A stretch of 64,000 nt of DNA from an uncultured Acidimicrobiaceae bacterium (GCA_963840435.1 CAWIYY010000015.1:42105-106104); one strand, 5' to 3'; counted from the first letter of the stretch, positions 26,126-37,461 are shown. The notes: generated from the letters alone by a model not told the origin. Program-made: numbers and translations.

Positions 26126-26136
26126 ATGGTCAATAC

Positions 26137-26172
26137 CATGTAATTGGCATGTAATTACATGGAAACATGTAT
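26137..26172. promoter_or_regulatory. AT-rich motif cluster CATGTAATT-gg-CATGTAATTACATG-gaaa-CATGTAT
   Basis: Perfect 14-bp palindrome CATGTAATTACATG at 26148-26161, flanked by two further CATGTA(A/T)T copies. It lies in a ~90-nt low-GC island upstream of pstC. Confidence 0.5.
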
Positions 26173-26217
26173 TTAGTAGGTAACCTAAAGTTTACTGCAA
26201 CGACAGATTCCGGTAAC

Positions 26218-26281
26218 TCACGGCCGTTAGCGTGATCGGGTGCTCGAGCCAGAGTCCACCCAGATCACCTAACGGCCGTGA
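26218..26281 (+). promoter_or_regulatory. long imperfect hairpin that includes the pstC start codon
   Basis: TCACGGCCGTTAGcGTGATCGGGTG (26218-26242) pairs with CACCCaGATCACCTAACGGCCGTGA (26257-26281). The GTG start at 26278 lies in the 3' arm. Confidence 0.5.
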
Positions 26282-27267
26282 CTACTGAAACCCTGGTTCG
26301 CCCCAACACCGAGGCCCCGCGTCCCATCGTCATTCCGAACGATCGGTCGACCGAGGACAAGATCTTCCGAGGGGTGGCCCGAGCGGCAGGGTTCACTGTC
26401 TTCGCCATCCTCTTCCTCATCGGGTTCTTCCTGCTTCTTCGAGGGCTCCCGGCACTGCGGGCAGTGGGGTGGAAGTACTTCACGACGTCGGGCTACAGCA
26501 CTCTCCACAAGCCGTACCACTACGGGGCGGCTGCCCAGATGTTCGGGACCGTCTTGATCGCCCTTATCGCGGTGATCGTCGGTGTGCCTGTCGCCATCGG
26601 GACGGCGTTGTTCCTGACCGAGTACGCACCCCTCCGGGCCCGCCGAGCGCTGATCGCGATGGTCGACCTGGGCGCAGCCGTCCCCAGCATCATCTTCGGG
26701 CTCTGGGCGCTCCATGTGTTCCAACCTCAGATCACGGGGTCGACGACTTGGATCGTGCACCACTTGTCTTTCATCCCGATCTTCAAGGCGTCGACGCCGC
26801 CCTTCAACGGCTCCTTCTTCATTGCAGGTCTGATCGTCGGCATGATGATCGTGCCGATCGTGGCGTCGGTCTCCCGTGAGGTGTTCAGTCTCGCTCCACC
26901 CGGCGAACGGGAGGGAGCGCTGGCGCTGGGGGCAACTCGCTCCCAGATGATCAGGACGGTTGTCCTGCCCTTCGGGCGCGGGGGCATGATCGGCGCCTCC
27001 ATGCTCGGACTGGGACGGGCTCTCGGCGAGACGATCGCGGTCTACGTGATCTTGGGTCTCGACTTCACGATCTCACCGCATATCATGGAACACGGCGGCA
27101 CGTCGGTGGCGTCCTTCATCGCCGCAGAGTTCGGTGCAGGTGGGAAACTGGGTACGGCGGATCTGCTGATGCTGGGCTTCGTCCTCTTTACGTTCACTCT
27201 GATCGTCAACCTCGTGGCATCCATGATCGTCAACCGTTCTCGCAGCGGAAAGGGCGTCGACCTGTGA
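26278..27267 (+). CDS. pstC: phosphate ABC transporter permease PstC
   Basis: 329 aa, six-TM pattern, FLTEYAP and EAS/EGALALGAT permease loop. Followed by pstA and pstB with overlapping junctions. Confidence 0.9.
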   Translation: MTTETLVRPNTEAPRPIVIPNDRSTEDKIFRGVARAAGFTVFAILFLIGFFLLLRGLPALRAVGWKYFTTSGYSTLHKPYHYGAAAQMFGTVLIALIAVIVGVPVAIGTALFLTEYAPLRARRALIAMVDLGAAVPSIIFGLWALHVFQPQITGSTTWIVHHLSFIPIFKASTPPFNGSFFIAGLIVGMMIVPIVASVSREVFSLAPPGEREGALALGATRSQMIRTVVLPFGRGGMIGASMLGLGRALGETIAVYVILGLDFTISPHIMEHGGTSVASFIAAEFGAGGKLGTADLLMLGFVLFTFTLIVNLVASMIVNRSRSGKGVDL

Positions 27268-28433
27268 GCCTGACCGTCACCAATGGGGCCGCACCCGGGG
27301 ACCAGGTCACGCTGGCGACCAACGGCTCTCGCGGGATCGTCTCGCCGCCCCGCCGCACCCGTGACTTCGGCGCCAAAGGTCTGGCGCTCCTGGCCGCGTC
27401 CATCCTGTCCTCGTTCGCGGTCGTGTGGATCTTCTTCTACGAGCTCACGCTCCTTTCGGGCGCGTTCGGTTTCATCCTGTGCTGGTACGCCTGCTTCCTC
27501 GTCGTCTATTGGCTCGTGACGAACCTGAGCATCGACCGGGCCGCGGCCACCGACCGGGTCCTCACCGCAGTGGTTGCCTCGTGTGCTGCCCTGATCATCG
27601 GTCTACTCGGGTACATCATCGGCTGGGTCTTCGTGCGTGGTGTCGCGCATTTCACGGTCGGTTTTCTCTACCGCTCCATGCGCTACTACCAGCCCGCTGA
27701 TCCGCACCTCTTCAGCGACGTGGGCGTGAGCCAGGCGATCATCGGAACCCTCGAGCAGGTCGGCTTGGCTGCACTCATGGCAGTACCACTCGCCTTCTTG
27801 ACGGCCATCTTCCTCAATGAGGTCGGGGGGTGGGGCACCAGGTTCGTGCGGACAATCGTTACTGCGATGAGTGGCGTTCCATCCGTCGTGGCGGGTGTGT
27901 TCATCTACGCCGTTTTCATCGTGCCCCATGTGCTCGGCTATTCCGGCTTCGCCGCGTCGATGGCGCTCTTCGTCTTGATGCTGCCCTCCATCACGCGGAC
28001 CACTGAAGAGGTGCTGCGGGTGGTGCCCGGGGGGCTGCGCGAGGCCTCGTTGGCTCTCGGTGCGTCGGAGTGGCGCACCGTCCGCCAGGTGGTCCTGCCC
28101 ACCGCCCGCTCGGGACTCATCACCGCCGTTGTCCTGGGGATCGCCATCGCCGCCGGAGAGACGGCACCGCTGATCTTCACGGCGTTCGGGAACAGCAATC
28201 TGAACTACGACCCATTCCACGGGCCTCAGGCCGCGCTGCCCCTGGTGCTCTACGAGGACATCGCGACCGCGCAGCCGGCAGTAGTGCAGTTGGCGTTCAC
28301 GGCAGGGTTCGTCCTGCTGAGCCTCGTCCTCATCCTCTTCGTCATTGCGCGGCTGTTCGGCCGGCGGTCGACCCGTAAGGGTCGGGTTCGCCACGCCTTA
28401 GCCGCGCCCATCCGCTGGGTCAGGAGCATCTGA
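27264..28433 (+). CDS. pstA: phosphate ABC transporter permease PstA (long N-terminal extension)
   Basis: 389 aa. [21 protein letters not shown] is the PstA EAA loop. GTGA overlap with pstC. Confidence 0.9.
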
Positions 28434-29275
28434 TGGACACGTTCACCGATATCCGCCCGTCGTCTGATGCGGAACATCCGATCGTCGCTCCGGTCGGCCA
28501 ATCCGCTCAGCTCCAGGCACACGGGGTCTGCGCCTGGTTCAGCGGTCGTCTGGTGCTCGAGTCGGTCACGCTCAACATGGAGCGTTCACGGGTGACGGCC
28601 CTGATCGGCCCGTCAGGCTGTGGCAAATCGACCTTCCTCCGCATCCTCAACCGGATGCACGAGCTGGTGCCGGGGGCCCAGCTGGCCGGACGGGTCGAGC
28701 TCGACGGGGTGGACGTCTACGGCGGAGGTTTGCGGGCCACCGAGGCCCGCAAACAGATCGGCATGGTGTTCCAGAAGCCGAACCCGTTCCCGGCAATGAC
28801 GATCGAGGAGAACGTGCTCTCCGGCCTCAAGTTCAATCGGACAAAGCTGTCGTCGGCCGGCAAGCGGCTCGTGGTCGAGGAGATGCTGACCAAGGCCGGC
28901 TTGTGGAACGAAGTCAAGGATCGGCTGAACGAGCTGGGCGGCGGTCTCTCGGGCGGTCAGCAACAGCGGCTGTGTATCGCTCGCGCCCTTGCCGTACGCC
29001 CTCGGGTCCTCCTCATGGACGAACCCTGCTCCGCTCTGGACCCGACGTCGACCAACCGAATTGAGGAGACCATCCGAGAGATCGCCGATGAGGTCACGGT
29101 CGTGATCGTGACGCACAACATGCAGCAGGCTCAGCGGGTCTCGCACACGTGCGCATTCTTTCTGGCGGCGGAGGGCCAGCCGGGGCGGGTCATCGAATCC
29201 GGAGACACCGAGATGATGTTCGGAAACCCCTCCGATCCTCGAACCAGCGACTACGTCAACGGGAGGTTCGGATGA
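28433..29275 (+). CDS. pstB: phosphate ABC transporter ATP-binding protein PstB
   Basis: GPSGCGKST Walker [13 protein letters not shown] (PstB-specific), [20 protein letters not shown]. Confidence 0.95.
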
Positions 29276-30945
29276 GGCGTGTCGTCAGGTTCTCATGCCT
29301 CCTGGCCGCGCTGACCTTCGCGGCTTCGATCGCCTCGTTCGGCCTGAGCAGCCTGGGGTCCGGTTCAGCTGGTGCGGCGTATCCCCTGCTGACATCAACG
29401 GGGTCGAGTTTCGCCGGCGTCGCCATTTCAGAATGGCAGGGGCAGTTCAACGAGCTCGATGCCGGCAACATCAACTTCACCGTCACGTCCTCCGTCGTCG
29501 GCATGAACGACTTCTGCCAGAACACGGTCAACTTTGGCGCGACCGACATCGCCTACAGCACGAATCAGTCGAACTGCACGACGAGCCAGGTTCCCTACCC
29601 GTTCCAGTACATGCCCGACGTCGCCGGCGGACTGGCCTTCGAATACAACCTCACCGGGCAGAACGGCGAGGCGGTCAACAACCTGATTCTGAACGCAACG
29701 TTGCTCGAAGGGATCTTCACCGGTGCCATCACGAACTGGGACGATCCTTCCATCGCTGCGCTGAACCCCGACGTTCGCTTGCCGAACGAGGCCATCACGG
29801 CCTTCTACCGGGGAGACCCTTCCGGTGAGAACTACCTCCTCAGCGACTACTTCCTGCACACGAATCCGGGACCGATCACTGCGTTCCAGCAGTTGGCCGG
29901 AGTGCCCTCGACGCCAGGTCAGCCCTCGGCGACCTGGGCGGCCTTCCCCAACGGCAAGCCGACCAGCCTGCAGGGCCTGGTCAGTGTCGGCTCGGCAGAC
30001 AGCGCGGCGCAGGGCCCGAAGCAGACGCAAGGCGGCATCTCCTACGTCGAGACCGCCTATGCAAAGCAGGCTGACTTACCCGTGGCCTCGGTCGTCAACC
30101 AAGCCGGGTATGCCGTCCAGCCTGCGTCCTACAACGTCGCCGTCGCCCTGACCGGCGCCATCTTGTACCAGGACCTCACCCAGAACCTGGCCGGGGTCTA
30201 CACGAACCCGAATCCCAACGCCTATCCCATCTCGGCATACAGCTATTTCATCGCCCAGTGCGTGCCGTCCCAGGCGGCGACTCAGAACTTCGCTTGCGAC
30301 AGCTCAGGAAACGTCACACAGGTCACATCACAAGGTCAGGAGATGGCCGCATTCATCACCTTCGTGGCCTGCCTCGGCCAGGCGAATATGGCAAAACTTG
30401 GGTATTCGCCGATACCACCGAACCTGGTGGAAGACGATTTCCAGGCGGCGGGCCGGCTTGAGGGCGGGGTAGAACCACCGGCACCCACGCCGCAGAACTG
30501 CGACAACCCGTACATCACGGGGGCACTCCAACCGGTGGGTCAACCGACGGTGGTGGGGTCGGCCAATCCGGGATCGGCAGGGGCTGCATCAACCGCTGCC
30601 ACCACCGCTGCCGCCACGGCCGCCGCGGCAGCCGCGGCCCAGCACGCCCAAAACGGTGGGTTGAACGCGCCGCAGAGCGTCACGGGTTCTGGTGCGTCGG
30701 CGACCGCCACGGCCGGTGGTCCATCCAAAGCCACGAAGAAGAAAGCAGTGAACGCGCTGACCGACCCTGCCCTGGCCTACGACCGCCAGGACGGTTTGAT
30801 CGGCGCCGCCAACAGTGGGCTGGACAGCTGGTCGCCCACTGTCGTGGCTCTGTGGTCGCTGATCTTCGCCGTCTTCCTCGTGGGGGTGCCGTTGAGCGTG
30901 TGGTTCTGGCAACGAAGGCGAAAAGACTCGGGAGGCATGACGTGA
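29272..30945 (+). CDS. pstS: PstS-type phosphate-binding protein with Ala-rich linker and C-terminal transmembrane anchor
   Basis: ATG 29272 overlaps the pstB stop. Colinear with E. coli PstS: [59 protein letters not shown]. The C-terminus [32 protein letters not shown] is a TM helix plus a basic tail. Confidence 0.75.
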
Positions 30946-33662
30946 GAACGACACGGATCCGCGTTGCGGTCCGGCTAGCCGTCGCGTTCGCCATCGGTGC
31001 GGTGTGCCTACTGGCGTTCGCTCCAGGCCACACCAACGCCTCGGCTTCGAGTGTCGGAAGTGCAGAAACGGTGCTCCCTCACGCCTCCGCCTCGTGCCCT
31101 CCCGAGGCCAACTCGTGTGTGCAGATGCCGTTCGACGCTACGAATCCCAATGTCGCCACCATCTGCCCGGCTGGCTGCACGCTGACGGCAGGACCGGTCA
31201 GTGCGCTCGGGCAGGGACAGTCGGTCTATGTCGACGTGTCGGGTCTCGCGACCGGTGAGGAAGTCGCGCTTGCCATGTGCACCCTGCCGACAGGGACCAC
31301 GCCCGTGGCGCAACCACAATGCGCGTCGTATCTACCGGCGGGGCCGAGTTGTACCGAGAACTGCTCCGGGACGCCCAGCCCCCTCGAGTGGCAATACGAC
31401 ACCGCAGCATCGGCCGACACCGTCATGTCGATCGGGACCCAATACGACCCGAACGTCTCCGGCCAGACGCCCATTACCTCGCAGACATCCACCCAATACC
31501 AGTCGGGAGATCCGAATGCCTTCGGGTCTTTCTTCTGCGACAACGGGCCGGCCAATCCGTGCGGAATTGAGGTCATGGATCTCGGCCCCAACACGCAGGA
31601 CGTGGTGGGTGACGGTTTCCCGCCCCGTGTCGCCTTCAATTCCACGACCGCCAACACCGTCGTGATCCCGCTCAACTGGGCCGCCACCGGCTCGGGGTGC
31701 GGATCGGCGCCCATCATGCAGGTGGATGCCTCGTACAGCGCGGCCCAGTTCCTGCCTGCCGCCGGAGAGGCGACCTGCAATGGCACGGACGGTGTCGCCG
31801 TGCTGCCGACAAGCGTTCCATCGGTCGACGATCCCACGTGCACGTCCGGAACGGGCTCGTGTCCGATCGGGGACGTGATCAGTGGGAACACAGCAGCGTC
31901 GTTCACGGACGACCCGAACGACCCGGCCACACTGGCCGAGCTTCAGGCCGCCGGAGGGAAGTTCGCCTACATCCCGATCGCGGTCTCGGCGACAGAGATC
32001 GCGTTCGAGGGCGAGGCGGGTCAGAACGGATCTGGTGGCTCGATCTATCCCCTGAGCAATTACAACCTGACCCCGGCGCAGACTGCCGGCATCATGACGC
32101 AGCAGTGGACGTCCCCGATAGCGCAGCCCGGCTCGCCCGAGGACGATATCTGTGGACAGTTGGGTGCGACGGCTCCGTGCACAGAGACGCCGAACATAAC
32201 GCAGTCCCCACAGACTGTGTATGAAGTCAACGGCCAATCCGCCAACGTCGACGTCGAGGGCGTGGACGGCGGGGTACCCACGCCGGCCACATTCCCGTTC
32301 CTGAGTTATACCGGCACCTACGGCGATGGGTCGTTCAAGAGTCCACTGAAGAACTATCCGCAACTCACCGGCTACGCGCTGCTCAATCCGTGGCCAGGCG
32401 ACACCGGCCTCAGCACGGAATCGGTGACAGAATCAAACCTCGACGCGATGTTTCCGTCCACCGCGAGCGGCGCCTCCTATGAGACCTCGGGTTGGATCTG
32501 TGGCGCACCGGACAAGTCCTATTCGGTCACGCTTCCCGGCGGGACGCAGGCGACGGTGAGTGATCTCGAGAGCGGTCCGCAGCTCTTGGCGAACGGCGAG
32601 CAGGATCCGATCGAAATGACCCAAGTCGACGGTGTGTGGACGCTCAACCCCAGCGTGACCGAGAACTTTCAAGCGAATCCGAGCGGCTGCGAAGCGCTGT
32701 CCAGCCTCCCCACGGACTTCGCGCCACAGACGTCGGCCGGTGGTGGGATCACCACCTATGCGCCTTCGAGCCAGCCCCTGACGGCGGCGCACGCCATCTC
32801 GGGAAATGCCAGCAAGGGGCTCTTGGGGTTTGCCTTCACCGCTATGGACAGTTCGGAGGCGGACTTCTATGGCCTCCTCCCTGCCAACCTGCAGAACGCC
32901 TCGGGAGCTTTCGTTGCCCCGTCAGCACCGGCCATCACGGCGGCTCTGAACGATGCGACCCCGGCGAAGAACGGCACACTGATCCCGAGCTTCACCAACG
33001 CAACGGACGCGGCTGCCTATCCAATGCCGATGGTCACCTACGCGCTGATCTCGACCAGTCCGCAACCAAGCACTGCTCAGGCCGCTCAGCTCACCGACAT
33101 GCTGACCAACCTGGTGAAGTACTCCAATACAGGCGGTGCCGGTACCAGCGAGCCACTGCCTCCGGGTTACGTCCCGCTCCCGACCAACCTCTACCAGCAG
33201 GCGCTGGGGGAGATTGCCAGCGATGTCATCGCCCCCGACGGTCAGCCCGTTGGCGGCGAGGCCGCAGCGCCGCCACTGCATTCCGCATCTGGCTCCGCTC
33301 CCGGCGCGTCGACCTTGCCCGACGATTCATCGAGCGAGTTCTCGCCTGATTCGTTCGGTGGCGAACTCGGGGCACCTTTCGGCCTGGCCGTCGAGAAGGC
33401 GGCTGGGAACAGTCCGGCAAAAGACTCCTCAGGTTCCCCGTCCGGCGGCGGGGGCTTGAACCCGATCGGGCGCTTCATCGCCGTGACACTGGGTGACAAC
33501 CGGTTCCTGGTTCCCGGTCTACTTCTGTTGGCCCTGATCTGTCTGGTCGCTGGACCGCTGCTTTACATGTCTCCATCGCTACGGAAAAAACCGGCTACTG
33601 CCACGGATGGGGGTGTGGACGGCGTGGGCGGCGAGGGTGACGGCCCGCCGCCCGTGGAGTGA
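30942..33662 (+). CDS. large (906 aa) surface protein with PstS/PBP-like segments and a C-terminal transmembrane anchor
   Basis: GTG 30942 overlaps the upstream stop (GTGA). Signal peptide. AGGKFAYIPIAVSATEIAF and AAAYPMPMVTYALIS...PPGYVPLP resemble PstS-fold segments. C-terminal FLVPGLLLLALICLVAGPLLYM followed by LRKK. Confidence 0.6.
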   Translation: MRTTRIRVAVRLAVAFAIGAVCLLAFAPGHTNASASSVGSAETVLPHASASCPPEANSCVQMPFDATNPNVATICPAGCTLTAGPVSALGQGQSVYVDVSGLATGEEVALAMCTLPTGTTPVAQPQCASYLPAGPSCTENCSGTPSPLEWQYDTAASADTVMSIGTQYDPNVSGQTPITSQTSTQYQSGDPNAFGSFFCDNGPANPCGIEVMDLGPNTQDVVGDGFPPRVAFNSTTANTVVIPLNWAATGSGCGSAPIMQVDASYSAAQFLPAAGEATCNGTDGVAVLPTSVPSVDDPTCTSGTGSCPIGDVISGNTAASFTDDPNDPATLAELQAAGGKFAYIPIAVSATEIAFEGEAGQNGSGGSIYPLSNYNLTPAQTAGIMTQQWTSPIAQPGSPEDDICGQLGATAPCTETPNITQSPQTVYEVNGQSANVDVEGVDGGVPTPATFPFLSYTGTYGDGSFKSPLKNYPQLTGYALLNPWPGDTGLSTESVTESNLDAMFPSTASGASYETSGWICGAPDKSYSVTLPGGTQATVSDLESGPQLLANGEQDPIEMTQVDGVWTLNPSVTENFQANPSGCEALSSLPTDFAPQTSAGGGITTYAPSSQPLTAAHAISGNASKGLLGFAFTAMDSSEADFYGLLPANLQNASGAFVAPSAPAITAALNDATPAKNGTLIPSFTNATDAAAYPMPMVTYALISTSPQPSTAQAAQLTDMLTNLVKYSNTGGAGTSEPLPPGYVPLPTNLYQQALGEIASDVIAPDGQPVGGEAAAPPLHSASGSAPGASTLPDDSSSEFSPDSFGGELGAPFGLAVEKAAGNSPAKDSSGSPSGGGGLNPIGRFIAVTLGDNRFLVPGLLLLALICLVAGPLLYMSPSLRKKPATATDGGVDGVGGEGDGPPPVE

Positions 33663-34696
33663 TGGACATCGCTACCTCGGCGCACGACGCCGATCAACTG
33701 TCCGTCTCGACCCAGGAGGGAAGCCCCGAGCCCGACGTGGGGACCCCCGAGTCGCCTGAGAGCGGCGGGAACGGGGTGTCGGGACCGGACAGCTCCGCTA
33801 CTGCACCACCTGGTGTCGGCGAGTCGTCCCGGGCCCTCCTGGCCGCTCTTGGACGCGCCCTCGCGGTGTTGTCCCGACCACGGGTGGCCGGAGTCCTGAT
33901 CGGCGGACTGGGCGTCCTCATTCTGCTATTGCTCGGCTACATCTACGTGTTCACGCCGCTGAGTGCCGCTCGGTCGCAGCACTCGTTGTTGCAACAGATC
34001 CAAGCCCAGCCGGCTCAGACCTATCAACTGGCCGAGGGCAAGGCGCCACCGGAGGGCAGCCCTCTGGGCGTGCTCGAGATCCCGGCGCTCCATCTGGACC
34101 AAGCGATGGTGCAGGGAACCGACTCTCAGGATTTGCAGAAGGGTCCCGGACACATGCCGACCTCGTCGCTCCCCGGTCAACGGGGCAATGCGGTGATCGC
34201 CGGACGCCGTGCCACCTACGGGGCGCCGTTCGGATCTATCGGTTCGCTTCGCAGGGGCCAGATGATCAAAGTGATCGACGGTCTTGGCACGTTCCACTAC
34301 AGGGTCACGAGCGTGATCTACGTGCAGGGTGGCGCCCACGACGTCGTGACCCAGTCGGCCAACAATCGTCTCACGCTTGTCACTGCCGGGTCGGGTTTCT
34401 GGCCACAGGGCCGGCTCGCCGTCATCGCATCGCTCCAGGGAAAGCCCTTCCCTCATCTGAGCGCGACCCACTTTGCGGCACCGACATCGGAACTGGGACT
34501 CTCTGGCGATGCGGCTTCGGGATTGCTCTTCGTTCTGTGGAGCCTGTTGTTTCTTATGATTCTTTCGGTGTCGGTCTGGCTCCTGCGCCGCTGGTCACAA
34601 CCGGTCGTGGTGCTGCTCCTGTCCGTGCCCGTGCTCCTGCTTGTTGCCATTTTCGCCTGTGAGAGCTTCGTCGGTGCCTTGCCGGCAACGGTCTGA
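33659..34696 (+). CDS. class-E-sortase-like membrane protein lacking the catalytic His and Cys (pseudo-sortase)
   Basis: LEIPALHLDQAMVQGTDSQDLQKGPGHMPTSSLPGQRGNAVIAGRRATYGAPF...NNRLTLVTAGSGF...GRLAVIASL is colinear with SrtE-type sortases. AGHR is replaced by AGRR (R183, nt 34205-34207) and TLxTC by TLVTA (A243, nt 34385-34387). Confidence 0.75.
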   Translation: MMDIATSAHDADQLSVSTQEGSPEPDVGTPESPESGGNGVSGPDSSATAPPGVGESSRALLAALGRALAVLSRPRVAGVLIGGLGVLILLLLGYIYVFTPLSAARSQHSLLQQIQAQPAQTYQLAEGKAPPEGSPLGVLEIPALHLDQAMVQGTDSQDLQKGPGHMPTSSLPGQRGNAVIAGRRATYGAPFGSIGSLRRGQMIKVIDGLGTFHYRVTSVIYVQGGAHDVVTQSANNRLTLVTAGSGFWPQGRLAVIASLQGKPFPHLSATHFAAPTSELGLSGDAASGLLFVLWSLLFLMILSVSVWLLRRWSQPVVVLLLSVPVLLLVAIFACESFVGALPATV

Positions 34697-34703
34697 GGCG
34701 ATC

Positions 34704-35228
34704 ATGAGCTCGTTCAAATGTCAGCCGAGGCGCCGGGCCGCCTTGTTGGCCGTGTCGGGGGCCGCACTTGCGCTGGCTGCCTGCAGCTCGCCCAGTGCCA
34801 CCGCATCGGGCCAACATCACGCGGACGGCCGGACCTCCACGAGTTCGACAGGAGCTTCGGCCATTGATGCGCCCATGAAAGTCAGCTTCGGCACCGGCTC
34901 CATTGGCCAGCCCGATCCCACGACCACGGTGCCGAACGAACGCGGCAATCCCATTCCCCCGATCCTTGCCCCGGGGCAGAACATCATCATCTCTTCGTCC
35001 GGTTGCATGCCCGAGACCCTCGAAGCCAATGTGAGCGCACCGGTCGTGTGGACCAACCTCTCGGGCAAGCCACAGCGGGTCATCTTCGAGAATTTCCCGG
35101 TCGACTCCGGAACGATCCCGGCTGGGGGCACGTTCACCTGGACAACCGCCGACGCCGTTGCTATGGAGTACAAGCTTGAGCCGTCGGGCAAGCTCTGCAA
35201 GCTGCTGATGAACCCGGTGCAGCCCTGA
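34704..35228 (+). CDS. lipoprotein of unknown function
   Basis: ATG 34704, 8 nt after the sortase-like gene. Signal peptide with lipobox ALALAAC. High GC3. Confidence 0.55.
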   Translation: MSSFKCQPRRRAALLAVSGAALALAACSSPSATASGQHHADGRTSTSSTGASAIDAPMKVSFGTGSIGQPDPTTTVPNERGNPIPPILAPGQNIIISSSGCMPETLEANVSAPVVWTNLSGKPQRVIFENFPVDSGTIPAGGTFTWTTADAVAMEYKLEPSGKLCKLLMNPVQP

Positions 35229-35610
35229 TTGTTCTGCGGGAGCTGAAGTTCGCGCACCGTTTACCTCTGACTCATACGGTGTCCCCGTAGGCAGGAGCAC
35301 GAGGATAGTGACACCTGCAGTGCAAGTGCCCAGACGATGGGCGCTGGAGCTGCACTTTTGCGCCGCGACTTGGCCAAAAGCCAAACGGACGCATGGGGTA
35401 AGGAAGTGATCACCAATAGTTCTTCGCCCCGGTGTCGGGAATTCGCGGAACGTTTACGTTGCAACCGTAACGTGCACCACGGCGATGGGTCCCGAACGCC
35501 TCCGCACTTCGCAGATGCTGGACGGATCCTGTCCCCAGGGACCAAGCGCCACCAACCGGTGTCGGAATGCCGGTACGGAGATGAACCAACCAAAAGGAGA
35601 CCCAACCAAA

Positions 35611-37461
35611 ATGCTGAAGAAGCTGATGGCGCGCCAGCGCGCGCTGAAGCTAGGCGCAGGGTTGCTGGGGGCGTCCGTATTGGCAGTGGGCTTTGCTAGC
35701 CCAGCCTTTGCGACGGCGTCGTCCGGCGGCAACGTTGCCTCGGCGAACTACAACATCTATCAGGGCGGATCGAACACGACCTACCTGATGATGCAGCAGC
35801 TGGCGGACCTGTTCAACCAGGCACCCGGTTGCGACCTGGCCGTGGTGAGCGGCAAGATCCAGCCTCTCGACTACGAGTGCCCCGGCACCGGGTCCAGCTT
35901 GTCTGTGCCGATCACGACGGCCGCGACGGGCGCCACGACGAAGAAGAGCGAGACGATAACGCTCGTACCGGCGACCACCAACGCGAACATCTTCGCCAAC
36001 GACCCGATCAGCGACTCGGGTGGTGCCATCAAGGCGGGAACGATCGTCACCAGCGTGAACCAGAGCACGAACACCATCACAATCAGCGTCGCAGCGAAGA
36101 AGACGGTGGCGTCCGACAGTCTCACGGTGACCACCACCCCGGCGGTCGGTGAGAACGGCTTCACGACGTTCTCGCAGGAAAACCCCTTCAACGACCTCCT
36201 CATTGAAGAGCCTGCGTTGGGATCCTCCAACGGCATCCAGGAGCTCGAGGACCAGAATGGCCACGCCGCCGGCGCGTTGTCGGCCGGCGTCAACGTTGCG
36301 CCGCTTGACGTTGCCCGCTCCTCTCGTGCGCCGAACCTGACCTCATCCAGCTCCAATGGCGACGACAAGGGTCTCAACTTCGTCGCCTACGCGATGGACG
36401 CTGTGACGTGGGTCCACTGGACCAAGGTGAAGGGTACGGCGACCCCGTCGTCCACCCTCACCAACTTGACCGTCCCGCAACTCACCGCCATCTGGCAGAA
36501 CAAGCCCTGCACCTCACTGATCGATGGCACGAACGAGCCCTCGGCCAACTGGGGATGCTACGGCGGGAGCAAGAACGCACCCATCGCGCTCTACATCGCG
36601 CAGAACGGATCTGGGACGGAGTCCACCTGGCAGAGCCTGCTCGGCCTGACTGCTGGCAGCCCCGCGCCCAAGTTCCCCTTCGGCGGTGAGGACCCGAACC
36701 ACATCATCTTCGAGAACGAGACGGCGTCGATCCTGAACAACGGGGACGAAGCCAATGCCATCTTCTTCTTCTCCTTCGGGAAGTTCGAGACCATCTGTGC
36801 GCCGAACCCGTCCTTCTGCTCGGGTTCCTCCACCAGCTCGATGGCCTTGGGGAAGATCGGCGGCATCGCGGCGAGCAAGACCACCATTGCGGCCCAGCTC
36901 CCAGGGGCCAACACGACGGGGTCGAACCCGCAGCTGTTCCCGGGCGACCGTCTGCTCTTCAACGTGTACTCCGATGGCTCCAACCCGCAGATCAACGCTT
37001 CCTCGCCAGCTTCGCTCAATGCGGTCAGCGAGGACGGGTTCCTGTGTAAGCCTTCGAGCAACACGGACATCGACCCGAACACGGGCTTGACCTACCGCAG
37101 CGAGATCAACAAGGTGATCTCCGCGCAGGGTTTCTTCCCGCTGCCACTGATGGTGGAGAACGGTCAGAACGGACAGCAGAACGAGGCGGCATTCGGGCCC
37201 TTCGGCACGACGTCGACGCTCAACACTCCTCCCGGTATCCCGAACCCGGCGTGGAGCGACGGCCTTTCTGCCTCTAACTACAACGCGGCCAACGAGACCA
37301 CTCCGGCTCCGAACCAGGACACGGATGACTCGGCGGTCAACGGAACCAGCTACACGAACGTCTACTTCGACGGCAGCTCGACCACCACCCAGGTGGCCTC
37401 GCCGAGCAGCCCGGTCGGGTACTGCCTGACCGAATCGACGGACGGCAACAACACCAACTAG
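35611..37461 (+). CDS. secreted PstS-superfamily (PBP_like_2-type) substrate-binding protein, enlarged
   Basis: ATG 35611, 10 nt after AAAGGAGA. Signal peptide ends ASPAFA. GGSNTTYLMMQQLADLF, LGSSNGIQEL, LDVARSSR and IAQNGSGTESTW are colinear with B. subtilis-type PstS motifs (GSGtG, D..aSR, R.dGSGT). Confidence 0.65.
   Translation: MLKKLMARQRALKLGAGLLGASVLAVGFASPAFATASSGGNVASANYNIYQGGSNTTYLMMQQLADLFNQAPGCDLAVVSGKIQPLDYECPGTGSSLSVPITTAATGATTKKSETITLVPATTNANIFANDPISDSGGAIKAGTIVTSVNQSTNTITISVAAKKTVASDSLTVTTTPAVGENGFTTFSQENPFNDLLIEEPALGSSNGIQELEDQNGHAAGALSAGVNVAPLDVARSSRAPNLTSSSSNGDDKGLNFVAYAMDAVTWVHWTKVKGTATPSSTLTNLTVPQLTAIWQNKPCTSLIDGTNEPSANWGCYGGSKNAPIALYIAQNGSGTESTWQSLLGLTAGSPAPKFPFGGEDPNHIIFENETASILNNGDEANAIFFFSFGKFETICAPNPSFCSGSSTSSMALGKIGGIAASKTTIAAQLPGANTTGSNPQLFPGDRLLFNVYSDGSNPQINASSPASLNAVSEDGFLCKPSSNTDIDPNTGLTYRSEINKVISAQGFFPLPLMVENGQNGQQNEAAFGPFGTTSTLNTPPGIPNPAWSDGLSASNYNAANETTPAPNQDTDDSAVNGTSYTNVYFDGSSTTTQVASPSSPVGYCLTESTDGNNTN

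Follow-up and report, generated by a model that had tools for sequence, protein, structure and literature searches.

A catalytically dead sortase fold chained to a pst operon with membrane-tethered PstS paralogues in Actinomycetota

Sortases are textbook cysteine transpeptidases and drug targets, and the locus described here raises the question of what a sortase fold without its catalytic residues is doing among genes for phosphate uptake. The locus lies in a 64,000-nucleotide stretch from an uncultured Acidimicrobiaceae bacterium (GCA_963840435.1 CAWIYY010000015.1:42105-106104), hereafter the window, in which an earlier note, made from the sequence alone, had pointed out a sortase homologue whose catalytic His and Cys are replaced by Arg and Ala. 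We find that this protein combines a dead sortase fold with strong purifying selection, that its gene is chained by overlaps to pstCAB and to the genes of two PstS paralogues tethered by transmembrane (TM) helices, and that the arrangement recurs across Actinomycetota. It is a real, conserved and widespread feature: a natural, selected dead sortase, undescribed in the literature searched.

The reading frame on the plus strand (33659-34696) gives 345 aa from a GTG at 33659 or 344 aa from an ATG at 33662; the ATG, whose A is also the last base of the preceding stop codon (TGATG), is the likelier start. Three short motifs hold the residues at the former catalytic triad, namely AGRR (aa 181-184) with Arg183, TLVTAGS (aa 239-245) with Ala243, and GRLAV (aa 251-255) with Arg252. 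The features of the gene are listed below.

33659..34696, plus strand: sortase-fold pseudoenzyme gene, stop codon included (open reading frame; PF04203 match; structural model)
33659..33868, plus strand: N-terminal cytoplasmic, low-complexity, disordered region, aa 1-70 (predicted local distance difference test, pLDDT, 38-55 over aa 1-50; weak conservation in the alignment of relatives)
33884..33952, plus strand: TM helix 1 (TM1), about aa 76-98, the sortase-typical membrane anchor (hydropathy peak at aa 79-97; model helix H74-116)
34049..34444, plus strand: extracytoplasmic sortase beta-barrel domain, about aa 131-262 (Pfam aa 139-259; model strands E135-260; Foldseek matches all sortases)
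34154..34156, plus strand: Met166 in the GPGH-M motif (in the alignment, Tyr in six canonical relatives and SrtE 5go6)
34205..34207, plus strand: Arg183 (CGC) at the catalytic His position (alignments to solved sortases)
34385..34387, plus strand: Ala243 (GCC) at the catalytic Cys position (alignments to solved sortases)
34412..34414, plus strand: Arg252, third residue of the catalytic triad, kept here and lost in most other lineages (alignments)
34511..34678, plus strand: C-terminal TM hairpin, with TM2 at about aa 285-311, a cytoplasmic RRW loop, and TM3 at about aa 315-340 (hydropathy; model)
34679..34693, plus strand: conserved extracytoplasmic C-terminus LPATV (L341, P342 and T344 each >=90% conserved)

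Hydropathy places the three TM segments at aa 79-97, 288-306 and 316-334, and the corresponding helices of the AlphaFold2 model span H74-116, H285-311 and H315-340. TM3 holds a clade-specific Cys334 and a family-wide Glu335.

Sequence and structure agree on the fold. The sole Pfam domain is the sortase domain PF04203, matched over aa 139-259 with E = 8.6e-21 and 74.4 bits, where the cutoff is 26.6. The best NCBIfam family is the class E sortase model NF033747, yet the score of 88.9 bits lies below its threshold of 160, and the versions from Trebonia, Dactylosporangium and Nocardioides score 76–79 bits; NCBIfam holds no specific model for the dead family. The AlphaFold2 model, built from 74 relatives (pLDDT 84; predicted template-modelling score, pTM, 0.76), has the eight-stranded sortase beta-barrel, and a Foldseek search with it returned only sortases as top matches, with template-modelling scores for the barrel of 0.86 to sortase D (4d70) and 0.76 to SrtE (5go5). 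The NCBIfam ranking and the sequence matches in the PDB bear out the earlier view that class E sortases are the nearest kin.

Residue-level alignment with the solved sortases 5go6, 5uus and 4d70 pairs Arg183 with the His of AGHR, while Ala243 pairs with the Cys of the TLxTC strand both in the alignment to 4d70 and in a MAFFT alignment with Staphylococcus aureus SrtA. Neither the catalytic Cys (TLxTC strand) nor the catalytic His (end of beta4, AGH) is present in the window protein; the beta8 Arg is present, with Arg252 at the third triad position. The substitutions claimed in the earlier note, His to Arg at 34205-34207 and Cys to Ala at 34385-34387, are thereby confirmed at the catalytic positions by the alignments to solved sortases, and the PF04203 match and the comparison of the model with sortase structures confirm the fold. 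Class E enzymes recognize the P3 Ala of LAXTG through a Tyr of the beta3/beta4 loop (PMC5148588), and the position of Met166 appears to be that of this Tyr. By the alignment, the class E Tyr is missing here: Met166 follows GPGH where all six canonical relatives and 5go6 have Tyr; the degenerate forms have Met or Leu. An alternative nucleophile (Ser245 or His165) was considered as a family feature and rejected: Ser245, two residues past the former Cys position, is common among relatives, and both residues vary between lineages. By sequence and fold, the window protein belongs to the sortase superfamily, without the defining catalytic features and without the score, loop Tyr or substrates of class E. 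With the enzyme fold retained, the catalytic residues gone and purifying selection acting, it is a pseudoenzyme in the operational sense.

The substitutions are widely shared. The closest 120 relatives range in identity from 92% to about 32%. Of these, 111 have Arg where the catalytic His would be; at the Cys position 90 have Ala, 24 Ser and 7 Cys, and the canonical pair of His and Cys is found only at <=38% identity. Within the Arg/Ala clade both residues are invariant (Arg in 89/89, Ala in 89/89), and most of the barrel core is >=90% conserved. Across 18 Acidimicrobiaceae genomes, Arg183 is written with four synonymous codons (CGC, CGG, CGT, CGA) and Ala243 with three (GCG, GCC, GCA), and the ratio of nonsynonymous to synonymous substitution rates (dN/dS) relative to the window gene is 0.09–0.19 in the barrel and in the C-terminal TM hairpin alike. 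The best-conserved segments are those that line the former active site (GPGH, PGxxGN, GRRATxGAPF, LTLxTA), which suggests that the former site is still in use.

Retention of the downstream Arg in GRLAV, also claimed in the earlier note, holds for this protein and is specific to the Acidimicrobiia lineage; the equivalent of Arg252 is Tyr, Val, Ser or another residue in most other lineages. A word-based search from the Trebonia protein found Arg/Ala/Tyr in 119 of 120 Trebonia-type relatives, in which no triad residue remains. An exhaustive profile search yielded 2,748 cluster representatives at E <=1e-30, and 142 new top matches were typed for the residues at the His, Cys and Arg positions: 58 are Arg/Ser/Arg, 30 canonical His/Cys/Arg, 14 His/Ser/Arg, 6 His/Ala/Arg, 6 Arg/Ala/Arg, and 28 have other states. 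In a neighbor-joining tree, unrooted and drawn without support values, a single branch splits all degenerate sequences from the canonical ones, and the Ser forms are basal. The canonical relatives P0114-P0120 (about 32–38% identical) have the same two C-terminal TM helices and the TM3 Glu. The three-TM architecture is therefore older than the catalytic loss, and the helices that the earlier note had described as additional to a sortase are present but not extra.

The proteins end in LPATV in the window, in LLPAN[IY] in the canonical relatives, and in LLPNLY in the Trebonia type. The LPATV end lies on the outer face and is LPxT-like; it might fold back toward the groove, or touch lipid or a partner. 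The His/Ser/Arg relatives (P0106, P0113 and 14 of the 142 representatives) could be candidate serine-nucleophile sortases or a first step toward enzyme death. At locus L093, a TM-tailed protein is encoded directly upstream of a His/Ser/Arg member.

The genomic position of the gene ties it to phosphate transport. Six genes starting with pstC form an overlapping series, of which it is the last; the list below adds two further genes.

26278-27267, plus strand: pstC (GTGA junction with pstA; synteny with loci L001 and L002, BPD_transp_1; BLAST)
27264-28433, plus strand: pstA (TGATG junction with pstB; synteny with L001 and L002, BPD_transp_1; BLAST)
28433-29275, plus strand: pstB (TIGR00972, 320 bits; ATGA junction with the PstS-like gene)
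29272..30945, plus strand: PstS-like phosphate-binding protein (PF12849, E = 2e-23; TIGR00975, 167 bits; GTGA junction with the large partner)
30942..33662, plus strand: large partner, 906 aa from the likely GTG at 30942, with the open reading frame beginning at 30852 (PstS-like model; TGATG junction with the sortase homologue)
33662-34696, plus strand: sortase homologue (sixth gene of the overlap chain, followed by a 7-nt gap containing GAGG)
34704-35228, plus strand: small lipoprotein with lipobox LAAC (7 nt past the sortase homologue)
35485..37461, plus strand: secreted 658-aa protein without a TM tail, a remote PBP_like_2 / phosphate-binding relative (profile search; Pfam matches of orthologues)

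Based on the overlaps, the gene families, and the linkage described below, we assign the sortase homologue to an operon of the Pst phosphate ATP-binding cassette (ABC) transporter, with predicted co-transcription. The overlap junctions uphold the translational coupling to two tail-anchored proteins that had been proposed earlier, and both of these prove to be PstS-family paralogues.

A scan that took one genome per species returned 80 loci. Its patterns included the His-to-Arg change, so the sample is biased toward Arg; this bias is offset because the word-based search from the Trebonia protein and the exhaustive profile search were added. The survey of relatives suggested in the earlier note thus finds both the substitutions and the linkage: pst genes lie <=6 kb from the sortase homologue in 79 of the 80 loci, and the Cys is lost in all 80. 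Arg/Ala/Tyr occurs in 36 loci, and the third Arg is usually gone outside Acidimicrobiia. Other Actinomycetota account for 56 of the 80 loci, among them Streptosporangiaceae, Trebonia kvetii, three Nocardioides, Dactylosporangium fulvum, Catenulispora, Jatrophihabitans and Pseudonocardiaceae. Acidimicrobiaceae genomes at 59–74% identity keep the gene order of the window, and in the rearranged loci L005, L008 and L094 the large partner and the sortase homologue remain paired, with pst genes adjacent. Most loci of the other Actinomycetota have the sortase homologue between the PstS-like gene and pstB; in Trebonia the order is pstC, pstA, big partner, PstS-like gene, sortase homologue, pstB, and in Nocardioides the sortase homologue lies directly upstream of pstB, pstC, pstA and a PstS-like gene. 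The Arg/Ser and basal members are pst-linked too, in the same module. One locus (L091, GCA_019234035.1), from a bin labeled Candidatus Dormibacteraeota, encodes pstB, a PstS-like protein, the big partner, the sortase homologue and a 151-aa protein; this module in another phylum's bin reflects either horizontal transfer or a binning error. The canonical His/Cys relatives P0115 and P0118, the two loci sampled, have no pst neighbors and are adjoined by cytochrome c maturation (ccm) or DsbD genes. At L092, positions 1-1430, directly upstream of an Arg/Ser/Arg module, encode a histidine kinase together with a response regulator of the OmpR type, which are PhoR/PhoP-like.

The large partner has no Pfam match. 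Its profile matches Mycobacterium tuberculosis PstS-1 in the PDB (E = 6e-6), and the PstS fold is complete in its model (pLDDT 75), which also has insertions and reaches Foldseek template-modelling scores of 0.74–0.76 to PstS structures that include 9k3x_E, the Escherichia coli PstS in the PstSCAB complex. From the N-terminus, the protein consists of a signal peptide, a neocarzinostatin-like immunoglobulin (Ig) domain, the PstS fold, an 80-residue disordered linker, and a TM tail.

33468..33590, plus strand: large-partner tail, composed of GRFIAVTLGDNRFLVP, the TM helix GLLLLALICLVAGPLLY (with Cys897), and MSPSLRKK (conserved across 60 homologues)

The consensus of this tail among the 60 homologues is G[RH][FL]I[TA]VT[LV]G-D-x-R-[FY]-x-V-P, then LLLLALLCLxxGPLLY, then SPxLR[KR]. 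At the C-terminus of the PstS-like protein, a linker rich in Gly, Ala, Ser and Thr leads to a TM helix and the end RRRK. The PstS-like protein that other lineages encode directly upstream of the sortase homologue has a Gly/Thr/Ser linker, the motif (P)VTGxVVN[LV]A, a stretch of about 8 aa, a TM helix ending in PPxLxxWL, and RRRR; the VTGxVVN-type motif is found in 32 of 39 such proteins. Of 33 tails in which both landmarks were found, 30 have the Thr/Ser-Gly and the basic cluster 39 residues apart, and a hydrophobic helix with a basic end is present in every partner tail read, except for reading frames broken by frameshifts or contig ends. Cell-wall sorting signals have a three-part layout (PMC5148588), which the partner tails share, often with a Thr-Gly pair and without the Leu and the Pro/Ala of LPXTG/LAXTG. 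The tails are conserved far beyond the needs of an anchor. Within the 64-kb window we found neither a credible LPXTG or LAXTG tail nor a second sortase; in place of such motifs, the partner tails have ITVTLGD or VTGxVVN. The Ig domain in the N-terminal part of the large partner (30942-31500; Foldseek template-modelling score 0.70 to 1j48), for which PF00960 is recorded in the orthologues at L091 and L092, is an unusual addition to a phosphate-binding protein.

Two cysteines hint at a contact between the sortase homologue and its partner. Cys334 (34658-34660, in FACES of TM3) was gained in the Acidimicrobiia clade, the canonical relatives having Phe, and Cys897 (33540-33542, in ALICL) of the partner's tail helix lies at a comparable depth. 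Among 76 pairs, 37 have both cysteines, 33 have neither, and 3 + 3 are discordant; P0080/P0175, inside the Cys-bearing clade, have lost both together, one coupled loss. A Fisher test on this co-occurrence gives p ~1e-14, a value set aside as a probability because shared ancestry dominates the data. The pattern is suggestive of a TM-TM contact or a disulfide in the membrane between Cys334 and Cys897, a signal confounded by phylogeny.

How might such a protein act? We give roughly even chances to the reading that this catalytically dead three-TM sortase-fold protein, a fixed part of a variant Pst importer, binds the tails of the PstS paralogues uncut. The former sorting-signal groove, and probably the TM hairpin, would bind the conserved juxtamembrane motif and the TM helix of the tails with no cutting, and this binding may keep or orient the tethered binding proteins at the PstCA permease, so that a former enzyme-substrate pair would have become a receptor-ligand pair. 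That a sortase fold has turned into a non-catalytic ABC-importer subunit docking the tails at PstCA, and that it represents the first natural pseudo-sortase family, we propose more tentatively, at somewhat under even chances. The role in binding or positioning C-terminal anchors that the earlier note had suggested is plausible, with circumstantial support from the sorting-signal-like tails and the Cys/Cys co-occurrence. Several observations weigh against tail binding. The Cys/Cys association is largely phylogenetic, amounting to about two independent events, and the tails are not alike across lineages or in the two types of partner, so that no common recognition code can be made out. The sortase homologue could contact PstCA, PstB or a regulator instead. 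Many basal relatives keep Ser at the Cys position and some also keep His (14/142 His/Ser/Arg); active enzymes may thus occur in the wider family, and across the family as a whole the module may have kept some catalysis.

If its contacts are with PstCA, PstB or the Pho two-component system, the protein would be an accessory or regulatory subunit, for example an assembly factor or an anion sensor formed by Arg183, Arg184 and Arg252. Strict operon membership, the histidine kinase and response regulator beside the module at L092, the three arginines at the former triad site in this lineage, and the conserved TM hairpin (dN/dS about 0.1) are in line with this idea. We nevertheless consider it unlikely: Arg252 is replaced by Tyr, Val, Ser or other residues in most other lineages, which means that an anion site made of the Arg cluster is not general to the family, and the strong conservation and sorting-signal shape of the partner tails would go unexplained. 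That shape, with its three parts and its Thr-Gly pair in many lineages, would be expected of a decoy or guard that occupies the tails against an active housekeeping sortase or protease, so that the binding proteins stay in the membrane and are not moved to the wall, and active three-TM class E-like sortases do exist in related organisms. The tails, however, lack the P4 Leu and the LPXTG/LAXTG consensus and would be poor substrates anyway, which leaves a guard function distinctly improbable.

The protein might also still be an enzyme, using unconventional or partner-supplied residues to process or release the PstS paralogues. In favor of this, many relatives have Ser at the Cys position (with His/Ser/Arg in 14/142), Ser245 is common two residues beyond the former Cys, and conservation is high around the active site. 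Against these stand the Ala and Arg at the nucleophile and His positions here and in 89/89 clade members, the loss of all three triad residues in the Trebonia type, and the variation of Ser245 and His165 across lineages; Cys-to-Ala and Cys-to-Ser mutants of sortase A are inactive or nearly so. For the window protein, this reading has little probability. Residual unconventional catalysis is unlikely for the Ala-bearing members but possible for the His/Ser/Arg relatives. As for a strain-specific decaying pseudogene or a sequencing error, its probability is close to nil. The same substitutions occur in hundreds of independent assemblies (with Arg in 111/120 and Ala in 90/120 of the closest relatives), the reading frame is intact and its termini conserved, and the relatives' substitutions, the synonymous codon variation and the dN/dS of 0.09–0.19 refute it. 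The earlier note had named such decay or error as what canonical residues in close relatives would imply; neither this outcome nor the other refuting one named there, a His/Cys dyad elsewhere in the fold, emerged, and the relatives show a conserved pseudoenzyme instead.

The remaining genes of the operon and its upstream region add context. The small lipoprotein gene lies directly 3' of the sortase homologue in 22 of 24 Acidimicrobiia-type loci and in L091, L092 and L093, and is absent from Trebonia-type operons; its product (34704-35228) has no family match and no PDB match. The 658-aa protein is conserved and has no Pfam match of its own, the PDB sequence search was unhelpful, and hhalign against the large-partner profile was negative. 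Two of its 16 orthologues match PF12849 (best E = 7e-8), and its profile matches PDB 4q8r weakly (E = 0.005); it is probably a third PstS-family paralogue in the operon, as a remote relative. Upstream of pstC, an AT-rich region (26130-26215) contains CATGTAWTT or its reverse complement at 26137, 26148, 26155 and 26166, which is 4 matches in 80 nt against 0.01 expected from the window density. After these repeats comes GGTAACCTAAAGTTTACTGC, a sequence that L001 largely retains, with one mismatch, and at the same upstream place L003 and L094 have GTTCAC-type 11-nt direct repeats. The region looks like an operator, and we take the repeats as similar to the PhoP (PHO) boxes of actinobacteria. A perfect 13-nt inverted repeat (26218-26230 / 26269-26281; TCACGGCCGTTAG / CTAACGGCCGTGA) with a 38-nt spacer has its distal arm over the start codon of pstC; it may act as a hairpin in the leader RNA that masks this start, or as a site bound by a protein.

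In the literature searched we found neither a natural pseudo-sortase nor a sortase homologue in a pst operon; a paper reporting five sortase candidates in Actinoplanes missouriensis was considered as a prior description and rejected. Public sources label proteins of the dead clade "sortase," "sortase A" or "class E sortase," so that genome-based counts of sortases, and of inferred wall-anchored proteins, in soil actinobacteria are inflated. The link with pst genes and tail-anchored PstS paralogues suggests that phosphate acquisition in Acidimicrobiia, Streptosporangiales (Trebonia), Nocardioides and others involves a component so far unrecognized, and the graded states of the catalytic site are a natural record of how an enzyme-substrate pair may become a binding pair. 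If the proposed tail binding is correct, the series His/Ser/Arg, Arg/Ser/Arg, and Arg/Ala/Arg or Arg/Ala/Tyr would preserve steps of enzyme death, and the module would represent a previously unrecognized mode of tethering substrate-binding proteins, common in abundant soil Actinomycetota. Carriers are in culture (Trebonia kvetii 15TR583, Dactylosporangium fulvum NRRL B-16292, Nocardioides marmorisolisilvae, Catenulispora sp. GAS73), which makes these proposals directly testable.

Among known systems, class E sortases (Streptomyces coelicolor SrtE1/SrtE2, S. avermitilis SrtE 5go5, Corynebacterium diphtheriae SrtF 5uus) are the top curated family and the best PDB sequence matches, and have the same beta-barrel. 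They share with the window protein an N-terminal cytoplasmic extension followed by a TM helix, and the colinear segments GPGH, PGxxGN, AGxRxTYGxPF and LTLxTx with the beta8 Arg. The window protein differs in its Arg for His, Ala for Cys and Met for the loop Tyr, in scoring 89 bits against the cutoff of 160, in having no LAXTG proteins nearby (within the window), and in its pst operon setting. The published scheme of SrtE1 comprises a cytoplasmic extension, a TM helix, a linker and the catalytic domain, and lists no C-terminal TM hairpin (PMC5148588), which the window protein carries in addition. Closer in architecture are the canonical, uncharacterized three-TM class E-like sortases P0114-P0120, which share the three TM helices, the TM3 Glu and an LLPxN/T C-terminus; in the neighbor-joining tree no other canonical sequences lie closer to the dead clade. 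Unlike the window protein, they keep the His, Cys and Arg and the Tyr of GHY, and their two sampled loci lie beside ccm or DsbD rather than pst genes.

Binding proteins of ABC importers are tethered or fused in several known ways, including the lipoprotein PstS of Gram-positive bacteria, OpuA and GlnPQ with fused substrate-binding proteins, and the C-terminally anchored substrate-binding proteins of archaea. All resemble the present system in that the binding protein is held at the membrane near the permease, but what tethers it here is a TM tail at the C-terminus that bears a conserved motif, and the operon encodes a dedicated partner with the sortase fold, a combination for which we know of no described equivalent. 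PhoU, cytoplasmic and helical, is the classical non-transporter gene product of pst operons; it is likewise an accessory of the pst operon but shares no homology with the window protein, which is a membrane protein with an extracytoplasmic domain. The closest conceptual analogues are the iRhoms, dead rhomboid pseudoproteases that are under selection and are thought to retain recognition of TM clients. They are eukaryotic, have an unrelated fold and serve a different process; the likeness is one of mechanism only.

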